From IMG/VR virus record IMGVR_UViG_2671180636_000002: 4,292 nt of DNA; one strand, given 5' to 3'. The stretch is from a virus (lineage: Duplodnaviria > Heunggongvirae > Uroviricota > Caudoviricetes). Each line of letters opens with the position of its first letter. Position 1 is the first letter of the stretch. Of this stretch, positions 14 through 4,115 are shown one piece after another. The translations under genes and the position numbers were made by a program. The notes beneath the pieces were generated by a model that saw only the letters and a list, made by a program, of their open reading frames with translations, was not told where the DNA came from and ran no database searches.

Positions 14-1170
14 TTAACTGATCGGCATTACACCACCGGGACGCGGATTCATATCTTCCAGGTCGCGGCAGTCATTGGAAGAGTAAATTCCCCAGTTGAT
101 CCCGGTGGCGTAGGCTTCAAAACGGGACTTCATATCCCCGCGCAGTAACGCCCCGGCGTTAAATTTGGCGTAATAAACGCCCTGCTTACTTTTTCGTACC
201 AGTCCGGTGTTGATCCGCTGTTCGATGCGGGTCAGATACGGCACCAGTGAATAGTTGATAAATCCCAGCCCCAGCTCTTCGATATTGTTGAAGGTGGCGC
301 GATCGGTGTTCTGCACCATGTGCAACGGCACCCGGAACAGACGACAGATTTCTTCCAGCTGAAACTTGCGGGTTTCCAGGAACTGACTGTCCTCGGCGTT
401 CAGCGCCATCGACTTCCAGTCCAGCCCCATTTCCAGAATCATCGGGCGGTGAGCATTGCCAAGCCCCGTGTGACACTCCTCAAAATCTTTCTTCAGACGC
501 TCGTAAGCATCCGGCGTGAGCTTTTGTTCCGTACGCAACACACCGGATGTCACCGCACCATTACTAAACAACCTGGCACCGTGCTCCTCGGTTGCCGCTG
601 CCAGTGAAATGGCCTCACGCGCATACGCAATGGGATTCAGCCCGACAAGTCCATCCAGCGTCAGGGTGCGCACATGCCAGATTTCATTCTGGGTCAACAC
701 ATCCACGGAACCATCCGGAAACGTCACCTGATAAACCGGCTGCCACTGGCTGTTCAGCTTCGGTTCCACACAGCCCGGATCTATCGGAAGAAGCTCCACC
801 ACTTCTCCCAGTGCCTTTACCTTGTAGGCGTAAAAATTCCCCCGTAGACACAGGCAGACAATAACCAGCTCCCAGAATTCCTGCGGTGTCATGTAGCCAT
901 TAGGTTTTGCCGAAACCAACTTATGCAGTCGTTCATCCACCGCCCGTGTTTTCAGGGTACCGCTGATTTTGTAGAGACTGCAGGGCAGCATACCAACAGA
1001 CTCTGCCAGCACCCTGACGCAAGAATAGACCGCCGTCAGGCGCATGGCCCGCTGGCTACTGATCCGCTTTCCGGTATAGGTGTCGTATGACAGCCCGATA
1101 GCATCAGCAGTTCTGCTGGCGTGGTCACCGGCACATCGCTTTTTCGTTGAAATAATCCCGAAAAGAACAC
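14..1170 (-). CDS. Phage portal protein, HK97-family-like; 5' end unresolved (possible frameshift near the N-terminus)
   Basis: Long minus-strand ORF with stop TAA at 16..14, immediately downstream of terL as expected for a packaging module. The block AMRLTAVYSCVRVLAESVGMLPCSLYK near the N-terminus resembles the conserved N-terminal block of HK97-type portals as I recall it. The track ORF extends to a TTG at 1261, but 1171..1261 in that frame reads [16 protein letters not shown] (not protein-like) and overlaps a well-supported small ORF. There is no ATG/GTG/TTG in the body frame between 1170 and the conserved block. A GTG at 1170..1168 with GGAGG 6 nt upstream lies in a different frame. Confidence 0.85.
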
Positions 1171-1352
1171 TATTTACCTCCGCCGACAGACTGCCGTGTA
1201 CGGTCGAGATATCGCGCCACCAGCCACGACCAGAACAGGCACAGCGCCCCGGCAACAACAAAACCCGCCGGGGGATAAATCAGCCAGGCACCATACGCCA
1301 GCAAAAGCGCACCCAGCACGCCCACCAGAGGCGCGAGAATCAGCATGATCAT
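1170..1352 (-). CDS. Hypothetical small membrane protein (60 aa, two predicted transmembrane helices)
   Basis: ATG at 1352..1350 preceded by GAGG with a 5-nt spacer (minus strand TAACTGAGGTAATTATG), starting 11 nt after the terL stop. Translation [60 protein letters not shown] has two hydrophobic stretches and a charged tail. Codon choice is enteric-like (ctg, gcg, gtg, ggc). Its stop TAG at 1172..1170 overlaps a GTG at 1170..1168 by one base. It exactly fills the terL-portal gap. Confidence 0.55.
1177..1181 (-). promoter_or_regulatory. Shine-Dalgarno-like GGAGG 6 nt upstream of GTG at 1170 (candidate portal initiation site)
   Basis: Minus strand GGCGGAGGTAAATAGTG; the GTG overlaps the TAG stop of the small ORF by one base. 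Confidence 0.4.
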
Positions 1353-1363
1353 AATTACCTCAG

Positions 1364-3097
1364 TTAAAGCGAGCGGATCCCGTAGGACTCAATGTGGTCA
1401 GACAGCGTGTCTTCTTTCTCGTACAGCATGGCTCTGCCAACCGCCATAATCAGCGCAACTGCACCATCGATTTTGTTTTCCGCCTGCTCTTTGACGGGTT
1501 TCACCACATCATCGTTACCCGGCATGTTTTTGCCGACCACGTTGCCGATACACCAGGTCATGATGGGATTGCCGTCATGATGAAAACGTCCCGATTCAAT
1601 CGCTGCTTCCAGCTCTTTCATCGGATCGGACATATTGGTGAAGTTCTGGACGATAGTGACGGGATTCAGGTCTTCATCAGCAAGGTCATGTGACAACCCG
1701 GTCGCCCCGAAGGGGTCGATGGGTGACTCACTGACCGGGCTGATTTTGTTCGCCGCTTTGGCCTCCTCGAGGATGTAGCGATAATCCACCTCCGCACCAT
1801 CGGTAACGGTCAGAACGCCCATTTCCACCCATTTCTGAAAGCGTTCGGCTGTCCGTCGATCTTCATTTTTCTCGACGCTGTACACCGTGTCATACGGTAC
1901 CCAGAAACGCGGGGCCACACTGTAGTAATGCGTTTTACCGTCAATCTCGCGGGTATAAAGTCGCGCCATGCTGTTCATATCCAGCTTACGCGCCAGGTCA
2001 AAGGCCAGAATGCACGGCTGCCCCTCGAACTGCTCAAGGGTCAGTGATTTATCCTCGCAGCTCTGCCAGCTCACCAAGTTGAAATACGCCGAACGCGCCG
2101 ACACCCAGATATTGAGGTGTTTTGTTTTAAAGACGTTTGCCAGACGGGCGTTATTTTTCGCACGCTGCTGCTGACTTAACAAAAATTCGCGATAAACCGA
2201 CACGCCAATATTTGGATTGGCTTTTTCCAGCACCTGCGGGCCGGTCCAGTCGTCACCTTCATCAACGGTATAGATGATCCCGAACAGTTCATCGTTAGGC
2301 ACCGAGCCGTTGAGCATCTCGATGACTTCCCGCCGCTTGTCGTAGCACGGCCCCTCAATGTTGTACCCGGCGGTGGTGATGGCCCACATCAGTGGCTGAC
2401 GTCGCGCCCCCATCCCGGTAAGCATTGTGGTATAAAGCGCATCGGTGGCATGCTCGTGATATTCATCAACCACGGCACAGTGGGGTGATGAACCATCACC
2501 TGGGTTGCCGATCAGCGGTTCAAACCGCGCGCCATCCTCCGGACGGTTCATGTTTGAGGCGTTAACCTCAATCCCGAACGCTTCCGTCAGCATGGGTGTG
2601 CGTTTACACATCAGTCGCGCCGGGCGAAAGACTTCCCACGCCTGTTTCTCTGTCGTGGCACCGGAATACACTTCCGCGCCAAACTCGTTATCACAGGCAA
2701 AACAATACAGGGCAACACCGGCAGAGATTGCTGATTTGCCGTTCTTACGGGGGATTTCGGTGTACACCTCCCGGAAGCGGCGCAACCGGGTGCCTTTATT
2801 GACCCAGCCAAACGCACAGCAGATCACAAATAGCTGCCACGGCTCCAGCGTGATGGGCATCCGTTTGAATGCCCACTCCCCCTTGGTGTGCGGCAACAGC
2901 TGAATAAATTTCGCGGCCCGTTCAGCCAGGTCCTTGTCGAAGCGGTAACGAAACGACTTACTTTTTTCCGCCATCAGGTCATCAAGATGGCGCTGGCAGG
3001 CCTGAATCACAAACTGGCAGGCAACAATCTTTCCGCGCACGACATCCCGGGCATACTGATTTGCAGCATTTACGTTGGGGTAAGATTTCCGGCTCAT
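1364..3097 (-). CDS. terL: Phage terminase large subunit (TerL; ATPase plus nuclease)
   Basis: 577-aa ORF, ATG at 3097..3095, stop TAA at 1366..1364. P-loop-like EIPRKNGKS at about aa 115-122; hydrophobic stretch ending in acidic residues AVVDEYHE (Walker B-like); C-terminal acidic motifs ILAFDLA and [12 protein letters not shown] consistent with an RNase H-like nuclease domain. Size and position directly downstream of a small terminase fit TerL. Confidence 0.92.
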
Positions 3098-3588
3098 GAT
3101 TCGATAATTTTCAGAAACGGGTTAGTGGCTTTCTTCTGCCCCGCCAGGCCAATCAGACGCTGGCGGCTGCTGGGGTCGAGTCCGAGCATTGCCCCCGTGC
3201 TGCTCATCTCGGACTCCTGTTCTTTTTTGGCGGTCAGCTCCGGATTTTTGACCCTGCCGCCCATTGCACCGGTGATGGTGTTGCCCTGTATGGCAATATT
3301 TTTCACGGCACGTCGCCAGAACTCATAGGCCACGCACCACCGCTCAAGTACCGCCAGGTCAGTCACGCACAGCAGGCCCTGACCGCAGAGTTCTTTGGTT
3401 GTCAGTTGCCACATGATCGTGGCGAGAGGGAGATCTTCTTCAGCGAACCACTCTGGTGGCTCAACACCTTTGATGGGCGTAAAAACAGGTTCATCTTTGT
3501 TCAGGGCTCGCTTGCCGGGGTTTCCGGCCAGCGCCTTGCGCGCCGTTGGCTTGGGGCGACGCCCGGAACGCCCCGCCGTTCCAGCCAT
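3094..3588 (-). CDS. terS: Phage terminase small subunit (P27-family-like TerS)
   Basis: N-terminus [36 protein letters not shown] matches the GR.GR.PKPTA.K.L.GNPGKR.LN..EP signature I recall for P27-family small terminases. ATG at 3588..3586 is preceded by AGGAG (3601..3597) with an 8-nt spacer; the GTG at 3597 used by the ORF track overlaps the SD and is unlikely to be the start. Stop TGA at 3096..3094 overlaps the terL ATG (ATGA). Confidence 0.9.
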
Positions 3589-3596
3589 ATGCGGCA

Positions 3597-3601
3597 CTCC
3601 T
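3597..3601 (-). promoter_or_regulatory. Shine-Dalgarno AGGAG for terS
   Basis: Minus strand AACCAGGAGTGCCGCATATG; 8-nt spacer to ATG at 3588. Confidence 0.6.
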
Positions 3602-3709: not shown

Positions 3710-4115
3710 TCACCGGATTCGTTCGCGCGCTGTTTTCGCTTTATGGCAGGGNNNNNNNNNNNNNNNNNNNNNNNNNNNNNNNNNNNNNNNNNNNNNNNNN
3801 NNNNNNNNNNNNNNNNNNNNNNNNNNNNNNNNNNNNNNNNNNNNNNNNNNNNNNNNNNNNNNNNNNNNNNNNNNNNNNNNNNNNNNNNNNNNNNNNNNNN
3901 NNNNNNNNNNNNNNNNNNNNNNNNNNNNNNNNNNNNNNNNNNNNNNNNNNNNNNNNNNNNNNNNNNNNNNNNNNNNNNNNNNNNNNNNNNNNNNNNNNNN
4001 NNNNNNNNNNNNNNNNNNNNNNNNCACCGCGATGTTTATCGCAGTAACCCGAACTGTCTGTGGTTGTACCTGCACATCCACGCTTACGGCAGGCACGTGG
4101 GATTAGTGATGGCAT
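3710..4115 (-). CDS. Phage HNH endonuclease (packaging-associated), interior masked by N-run
   Basis: ATG at 4115..4113 preceded by GAGG (4124..4121) with a 5-nt spacer. Visible N-terminus MPSLIPRACRKRGCAGTTTDSSGYCDKHRG is Cys/His-rich and zinc-finger-like, typical of terminase-associated HNH proteins. Visible C-terminus ...PCHKAKTARERIR with stop TGA at 3712..3710 resembles the second half of an HNH motif. The two ends are in different frames across the N-run, so the coordinates are the span, not a verified ORF. Confidence 0.7.
3752..4024. other. Run of 273 N (masked or unsequenced gap)
   Basis: Directly visible in the sequence; falls inside the putative HNH endonuclease gene. Confidence 1.

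Follow-up and report, generated by a model that had tools for sequence, protein, structure and literature searches.

Association of ymfR, a gene for a putative small membrane hairpin protein, with the portal gene in a lineage of HK97-fold phage head modules

The gene ymfR is carried by the e14 prophage of Escherichia coli K-12 (b1150, 'IPR020297 domain-containing protein'), where it is 183 nt long, is placed between aaaE (a terminase remnant) and beeE (a portal remnant) and shares a one-base overlap with the latter. It has been annotated in the phages SfI, SfII (SfII_03), ST64B (Sb3), phiP27 (L37) and phiKO2 (gp3) as coding for a putative integral membrane protein, and 'protein YmfR' is the name given by the NCBI pipeline in about 1600 E. 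coli genomes. Here we describe a 60-codon open reading frame (ORF) located between the terL and portal genes in a 4,292-nt stretch of Caudoviricetes DNA (IMG/VR record IMGVR_UViG_2671180636_000002; this whole stretch is hereafter called the window), which shows no substantial difference from K-12 e14 YmfR, phiP27 L37, ST64B Sb3, SfII_03 and phiKO2 gp3. From its genomic context we conclude that ymfR belongs to the constant gene set of a large lineage of HK97-fold head modules, in which it is located directly upstream of a portal gene of the PF04860 type, rather than being a moron. By analogy, we tentatively propose that its product may act as a membrane accessory for portal or procapsid assembly.

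Identity and coding status of ymfR

The protein encoded in the window was identical to K-12 YmfR at 58 of 60 positions (97%) and matched the PHROGs family phrog_502 ('membrane protein') with an E-value of 2.8e-28 over residues 1-55. Its exact sequence was found under the name 'protein YmfR [Shigella]' on at least 1000 contigs, and matches to the region were obtained in 23 records of phages and 1619 of E. coli. The length of about 50-70 aa, the two hydrophobic helices and the Y.PAG turn that characterize the family are all present in the window protein. Judged by these matches the ORF is the already named ymfR, and the suggestion made in an earlier note on this DNA, that it was the best candidate in the window for something undescribed, has to be withdrawn. 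Searches of Pfam and NCBIfam with YmfR gave noise-level transmembrane matches only.

The enterobacterial set used for the analysis of coding status comprised the window and 93 fetched loci (94 sequences). The ymfR ORF was present in 91 of these 94 sequences and occurred in 21 distinct nucleotide versions, 19 of which were exactly 183 nt long, the remaining two having lengths of 186 and 195 nt. The ratio of nonsynonymous to synonymous substitution rates (dN/dS), calculated over the first 46 codons in comparison with homologs that were 58-66% identical, was 0.10-0.18 at a dS of 0.96-1.75, as opposed to 0.8-3.9 when the same substitutions were evaluated in the other two frames. A wider range of 0.10-0.25 at a dS of 0.7-1.9 was also obtained for the ymfR frame, with values of at least 0.8 in the alternative frames. 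Fifteen residues (M1, L6, P8, G11, G14, L18, G21, W23, Y26, G30, G35, C38, L39, W41, and S42) were invariant among 26 sequences of 58-90% identity. ymfR is a real protein-coding gene and not a chance or out-of-frame ORF, as the earlier note had maintained. The note had named the absence of homologs with a conserved reading frame, together with a portal ORF extending through the region, as evidence that would speak against the gene. Homologs with a conserved frame at this locus proved to be abundant, and the ORF at 14..1261 that overlaps ymfR in the window is a by-product of a deletion in the portal gene, which is described further below.

These data also bear on the possibility that the ORF is a translational leader only, which would bring ribosomes to the weak GTG start codon of the portal gene and would encode a peptide without function. 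The ribosome-binding site of the portal gene is located inside the ORF, the stop and start codons overlap in nearly all family members and the portal start in the window is a GTG, as would be expected of a leader. However, purifying selection is specific to the reading frame, Gly, Trp, and Pro residues are invariant across distant phyla, and a leader would not conserve a transmembrane hairpin, which together make this explanation highly improbable.

An RNA element or terminator within ymfR was likewise considered and was ruled out by folding energies and the lack of an Rfam match, the RNA folding of the ymfR region being no better than that of shuffled sequence (z = 0.47 and -0.11) and the Rfam search of this region returning no family. 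The SfII record (L001 2370-2419, corresponding approximately to window positions 1295-1344) annotates a 'putative rho-independent terminator' inside the SfII_03 coding sequence; the matching RNA of the window had a z-value of 0.47 relative to shuffled sequence, and a pattern scan found no terminator on that strand.

Association with the portal gene

A profile search of 1.84 billion representative proteins yielded 415 clusters at an E-value cut-off of 0.001 or lower. Among the 150 matches listed nearly all were 45-110 aa long, with the exception of four shorter fragments (26-43 aa) and one protein of 1523 aa that was probably a chance match. The matches that were inspected shared the central motif S-Y-G-A-W-L-I-Y-x-P-A-G-F-I, and 10 of 10 distant members tested fell within phrog_502. 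A degenerate DNA pattern representing the YGAW..Y.PAGF motif was used to retrieve further loci. In 72 of 72 viral contigs, mostly high-GC environmental ones, the gene directly 3' of the hairpin ORF was homologous to the SfII portal gene, and a terL homolog was located upstream wherever the DNA of these contigs extended that far. In the bacterial genomes 55 matches were located on 54 stretches, which originated from Alpha-, Beta-, and Gammaproteobacteria and from a small number of Actinobacteria (Micromonospora, Mycobacterium, Solirubrobacteraceae), with portal downstream in 51 of the 55 cases and the rest positioned at contig ends. For a pooled count, all loci retrieved up to that point were included with the exception of the lambda and HK97 records, which gave 277 hairpin ORFs with portal directly downstream in 268 and terL directly upstream in 234. 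The terL/hairpin/portal layout was found in SfII, phiP27, phi467, phiKO2, Marinobacter AS1, and K-12 e14, and also at the loci of the 58-66% identical homologs from Enterobacter, Klebsiella, and E. coli. The stop codon of the hairpin ORF overlapped the portal start codon in 60 of 65 non-redundant environmental loci (TGATG/TAATG in 43, ATGA in 17), and the two were separated by 0-13 nt in the other five. A tblastn search of isolated phages with a high-GC family member gave no match, probably due to low-complexity masking, and no contiguous conserved block of DNA was found across the portal genes.

The linkage of the three genes was analyzed using 134 non-redundant terL/hairpin/portal triples (8911 pairs), for which the first 250 residues of the portal protein and the last 250 residues of TerL were compared. 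Hairpin identity was correlated with portal identity (Spearman coefficient 0.76; partial coefficient 0.76 when controlling for terL) and not with terL identity (0.14; partial -0.03). The hairpin and portal genes were shared without terL by 39 pairs, while 0 pairs shared the hairpin gene and terL without portal. In phi467 terL differs from that of the window and ymfR and portal are almost identical to it, the break being located just upstream of the ymfR ribosome-binding site; in SfV terL is 95% identical to that of the window until about 80 nt before its end, after which the hairpin and portal genes both differ. On these identities the hairpin family is co-inherited with the portal gene and not with terL.

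The portals encoded after hairpin genes start with a short conserved hydrophobic motif (MGFLSxL, MSLFGSI, MRGLFGTL, and MAGLFGAI in the loci L092-L163). This N-terminal motif, M-x-G-L-F-G-x-L, takes the form MFFSGLF in SfII and MLLDALF in SfV, and it is a possible candidate for the site of contact with the hairpin.

The constant position has to be weighed against the view that ymfR encodes a moron, i.e., a small inner-membrane protein that modulates the host to the benefit of a lysogen or an infected cell, for instance by blocking the entry of superinfecting DNA or by altering a host membrane protein. Consistent with this view, PHROGs assigns phrog_502 to the category 'moron, auxiliary metabolic gene and host takeover', the protein is conserved on the part facing the membrane core and the periplasm, which is where it would encounter a partner in the host membrane, and ymfR is intact in two defective prophages with a broken portal gene, those of the window and of K-12 e14. 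However, an ORF of 183 nt can be expected to survive intact by chance while a prophage decays, and no special explanation is needed. A promoter and terminator belonging to ymfR itself were not found, as no sigma-70-like promoter was detected on either strand in positions 900-1700 and the lone terminator-like site was on the opposite strand. Defence models of PADLOC gave no match for YmfR or for two of three distant members, and only a non-significant one for the third (P0123; LeoBC, E-value 0.23). In K-12 ymfR was upregulated by about 4.5 log2 units together with other e14 genes under an SOS-inducing drug (PMC10012262), i.e., it was induced with the e14 lytic genes and is probably not constitutive, and this co-induction fits expression from a late operon rather than in the lysogen. 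Morons are sporadic in their occurrence, whereas the position of the hairpin gene is constant in the pooled loci over several bacterial classes and is accompanied by co-inheritance with portal.

The base composition points in the same direction. The earlier note had described the region as somewhat more GC-rich than its flanks, which is correct for the overall GC content (0.607 as against 0.547 on average in the window, which corresponds to the 96.7th percentile among 183-nt windows) but not for the GC content at third codon positions (GC3), which at 0.672 matches the values of 0.646-0.655 in terS, terL, and portal. The surplus occurs only at the first and second codon positions and is explained by the richness of the protein in Gly, Ala, Leu, Val, Pro, and Trp; a foreign island is therefore not indicated. 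Taken with the missing promoter and terminator, the layout, the co-inheritance and the co-induction, this leaves the earlier description of ymfR as a gene inserted between terL and portal in the manner of a moron without support, and we consider the moron explanation unlikely. Because of the invariant position and the co-inheritance with portal the PHROGs category of phrog_502 is doubtful, and we argue that it is wrong.

SfV (L003, NC_003444.1) is annotated with an empty gap of 99 nt between terL and portal. An ORF of 53 aa at SfV positions 2290-2451 (MKSLIADVIGLAGFGLLTCGVYLQFGMAPALILSGALLLVGALAMARRGTRAA) was matched by the hidden Markov model (HMM) of the family with an E-value of 2.5e-6. A hairpin ORF of this type was present in 80 of 80 SfV-type loci, always with a length of 162 nt and in 32 distinct versions, and has been called 'hypothetical protein' by other gene callers. 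Its dN/dS was 0.18-0.45 in its own frame, while the other two frames gave 1.2-4.2 among SfV-type sequences and 0.57-2.1 in comparisons with L226. Judged from the profile match and the substitution pattern, the gap in SfV contains a divergent representative of the hairpin family that is subject to purifying selection. In SfV the portal start is annotated at 2392, which falls inside the hairpin ORF in a different frame, and the alignment to the SfII portal starts 16 codons later at a GTG. The true portal start of SfV is thus probably this GTG at about 2440, the annotated start being placed 16 codons too far upstream.

In HK97 terL and portal abut, and the family HMM gave no match in HK97, in 80 HK97-type loci (0/80) or in lambda (best E-value above 0.7). 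The hairpin was found in every SfII-type and SfV-type locus examined and was missing only from the distinct clade of HK97-type portals. The statement of the earlier note that HK97-like packaging modules usually have no gene between terL and portal is accordingly valid for HK97 and its close relatives, but not for modules of the SfII, SfV, and phiKO2 types.

Predicted membrane hairpin and possible role

The grand average of hydropathy (GRAVY) of YmfR is 1.16, with two hydrophobic blocks, and an AlphaFold2 (AF2) model based on a 26-sequence alignment has helices at residues 2-25 and 27-57 (mean predicted local distance difference test score of 74), in agreement with the two-helix hydrophobic hairpin recognized in the earlier note. 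The number of lysine plus arginine (K+R) residues per protein in 187 family members averaged 0.77 in the segment preceding helix 1, 0.03 in the turn and 1.80 in the segment following helix 2. According to the positive-inside rule, YmfR would then have its two ends in the cytoplasm, with the Y-P-P-A-G turn facing the periplasm. The turn segment, with the motif YGAW..Y.PAGF, is the most conserved stretch of the family. Each helix carries a face of small residues (G11/G14/G21 and G35/C38/S42), which in the model would be compatible with tight helix packing. Four family members (P0158, P0171, P0181, and P0213; 102-122 aa) are tandem duplications with two hairpins and four predicted helices, which suggests that a single hairpin acts in dimers or larger oligomers. 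A sequence search of the PDB with two family profiles identified no relative, including no chain of the solved virion structures, and a Foldseek search of the PDB with the YmfR model gave nothing significant, as is expected for a bare helical hairpin.

The predicted structure invites a comparison with class II holins such as S21 of phage 21, which are small, late-expressed proteins with two transmembrane helices in an N-in/C-in orientation. YmfR is similar to them in size and predicted topology and could be a holin- or antiholin-like protein that is produced late and adjusts the timing of membrane permeabilization; the small-residue faces and the rare four-helix duplicates, which suggest self-association in the membrane, would agree with such a function. 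YmfR differs from these holins in being encoded outside a lysis cassette, SfII having a complete and separate S/R/Rz/Rz1 cassette about 5 kb upstream and L089 an endolysin gene upstream of the HNH gene. It matched no holin family in Pfam or NCBIfam, even at E-values of up to 10, its tail is short and weakly charged, and a role in lysis would leave the fixed place beside the portal gene unexplained. We therefore regard a lysis-timing function as improbable.

A further explanation would account for the proximity to portal by assuming that YmfR is carried in the virion, with about a dozen hairpins loaded together with the portal, leaving with the DNA and helping it to cross the inner membrane of the recipient. 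The coupling of its synthesis to that of the portal would suit such a protein, as would its association with the head/portal module across tail types, tails being contractile in the SfII/ST64B/phiP27 group and non-contractile in phiKO2 and PY54. Yet a protein of this hydropathy should insert into the membrane of the producer cell, the positive-inside pattern fits insertion from the cytoplasm, and no sequence match to chains of solved virion structures was obtained. Carriage in the virion consequently seems decidedly improbable.

According to the tentative proposal of a membrane accessory for the portal, ymfR would be transcribed only late, with the head operon of the phage, and the 60-aa hairpin would be inserted in the inner membrane of the host, its two ends being cytoplasmic and its turn located at the periplasmic side. 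The overlapping stop and start codons and the portal ribosome-binding site inside ymfR would cause the hairpin and the portal to be produced from one message in linked amounts, and the hairpin might then aid the new portal in oligomerizing or in nucleating the procapsid at the inner membrane. A more specific version, in which the hairpin would form a small inner-membrane oligomer or ring that captures the nascent portal, so that one procapsid is made per portal and head assembly starts on the membrane, is more doubtful.

Several observations weigh against the proposed role. HK97 and its 80 relatives assemble portals without a hairpin gene, so that the hairpin cannot be a universal requirement. 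The conserved half of the protein (YGAW..Y.PAGF) is the membrane-embedded, periplasm-proximal one, and the tail, as the part with possible access to a portal in the cytoplasm, is both short and variable. Overlaps of stop and start codons are common in phage late operons (terS and terL also overlap in the window), and coupling alone is therefore a weak argument. No fusion of a hairpin with a portal protein was present among the 150 best family matches listed. The pairs of the linkage set lack phylogenetic independence, with enterobacterial prophages predominating among them, and a recombination boundary at the 3' end of terL might be enough to explain the co-inheritance. Finally, a literature search found no functional study of YmfR, i.e., no experiment on its function.

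Even so, the family behaves as a core gene of the head module with respect to its fixed position, purifying selection and co-inheritance with portal, and its members are filed as 'moron' or anonymous 'membrane protein' in the records, are sometimes mislabeled as lambda W or are left unannotated. The assembly of HK97-like heads is usually described without a membrane component, and a conserved membrane protein tied to the portal provides a testable lead, SfII, ST64B, and phiKO2 being phages that can be induced and are accessible to genetic work. If the nucleation of procapsids at the membrane were true, head assembly in this lineage would start on the membrane as in T4, and a morphogenetic gene would be absent from the annotation of SfV and probably from that of other records.

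Layout of the locus and comparison with known systems

The genes of the window are arranged on the minus strand in the order HNH endonuclease, terS, terL, ymfR, and portal (Table 1).

Table 1. Features of the terL-ymfR-portal region in the window.
Feature	Position	Strand	Basis
HNH endonuclease gene, upstream of terS; middle masked by 273 N at 3752-4024		minus	
terS	3094-3597	minus	
terL, 577 aa, intact, directly upstream of ymfR	1364..3097	minus	ORF list; annotation of matching records; Pfam TerL_ATPase/TerL_nuclease on homologous loci
GAGG ribosome-binding site of ymfR, 5 nt before ATG	1358..1361	minus	read from sequence; kept in SfII, phiP27, phi467
ymfR coding sequence, 60 aa and TAG stop; YmfR/phrog_502 small membrane hairpin family	1170..1352	minus	ORF list, identity, selection
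Predicted transmembrane helix 1, residues 2-25; family-invariant P8, G11, G14, G21, W23	1278..1349	minus	AF2, hydropathy, invariant columns
Tight turn Y26-P-P-A-G30, predicted periplasmic	1263..1277	minus	alignments, K+R counts
Predicted transmembrane helix 2, residues 31-46; G35, C38, L39, W41-S42-W43	1215..1262	minus	AF2 helix 27-57, invariant columns
Variable positively charged tail, predicted cytoplasmic, residues 47-60, ends GGK	1173..1214	minus	alignment
GGAGG ribosome-binding site of portal, within Gly-Gly codons of ymfR, 6 nt before GTG	1177..1181	minus	read from sequence
Portal start codon GTG, sharing one base with ymfR stop (TAGTG)	1168..1170	minus	read from sequence
Portal (PF04860 type), here a pseudogene	31..1170	minus	alignment, three-frame translation, BLAST end points

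The terL stop codon TAA (1366..1364) is followed by CT, the GAGG, five bases and the ymfR ATG at 1352..1350, which is located 11 nt past the terL stop. The ymfR stop codon TAG occupies 1172..1170, and its G is common to the portal start codon at 1170..1168. The coordinates read directly from the sequence agree with the earlier observation of a 60-aa ORF that has its own GAGG and ATG and fills the gap between terL and portal. The direct reading of GGCGGAGGTAAATAGTG shows that the final codons of ymfR serve also as the portal ribosome-binding site. Junctions of the TAGTG type are annotated likewise in SfII, phiP27, phi467, phiKO2, and K-12 beeE, and the tails of many family members end in GGE, GGD, KEG, or EGD.

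Relative to SfII, phiP27, and phi467 the portal gene of the window has a 1-bp deletion between positions 1108 and 1109 (minus strand; GAACT-GCTG compared to GAGCTGGCGG), which shifts the frame about 20 codons past the GTG. The long portal-frame ORF overlapping ymfR (TTG start) results from this deletion. The likeness to SfII-type portals ends at about window position 31, and the last approximately 30 bases are the end of an IS4 element (TAATGCCGATCAGTTAAGGATCAGTTGACC, minus strand), by which the portal gene is cut short. The window shares 3751 identical nt with four IMG/VR contigs, each of which breaks off no more than 136 nt from the IS4 point; because these contigs share the deletion, it is not a one-off read error. 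The prophage in the window is defective. For the window itself the finding is thus of little significance, since what it contains is a nearly identical version of an already named prophage gene of E. coli and Shigella, located in a decayed prophage.

Two records outside the expected host range, OR844959.1 ('Enterococcus phage Efm 3-10', 1764 bp) and L280 (a metagenome-assembled genome labeled 'Bacillota bacterium'), were approximately 95-100% similar to the E. coli/Shigella terL-ymfR-portal region; contamination or mislabeling of the records is most likely, rather than a Gram-positive host.

The gene that takes the same slot in lambda, between terL (A) and portal (B), encodes gpW (head-tail adaptor Ad1). 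The gpW protein is soluble, whereas YmfR is predicted to be a membrane hairpin, and a relationship between the two was rejected, the hhalign comparison giving a probability of 0.8% over 4 aligned columns. The lambda portal, whose gene occurs without a match to the hairpin family, belongs to a different portal family. Four records (ON470584.1, ON470603.1, ON470580.1, and PQ793804.1) label a YmfR homolog as 'head-tail joining protein W', a label that appears to be positional.

The closest functional parallel to the proposed role is found in T4, where the membrane protein gp40 helps the portal protein gp20 to start prohead assembly on the inner membrane. What YmfR might share with gp40 is the proposed principle only, i.e., a small membrane protein acting on the portal at the inner membrane. 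The gene for gp40 is not located next to that for gp20, unlike ymfR, which lies beside the portal gene, and the likeness would be a functional analogy that implies no homology.

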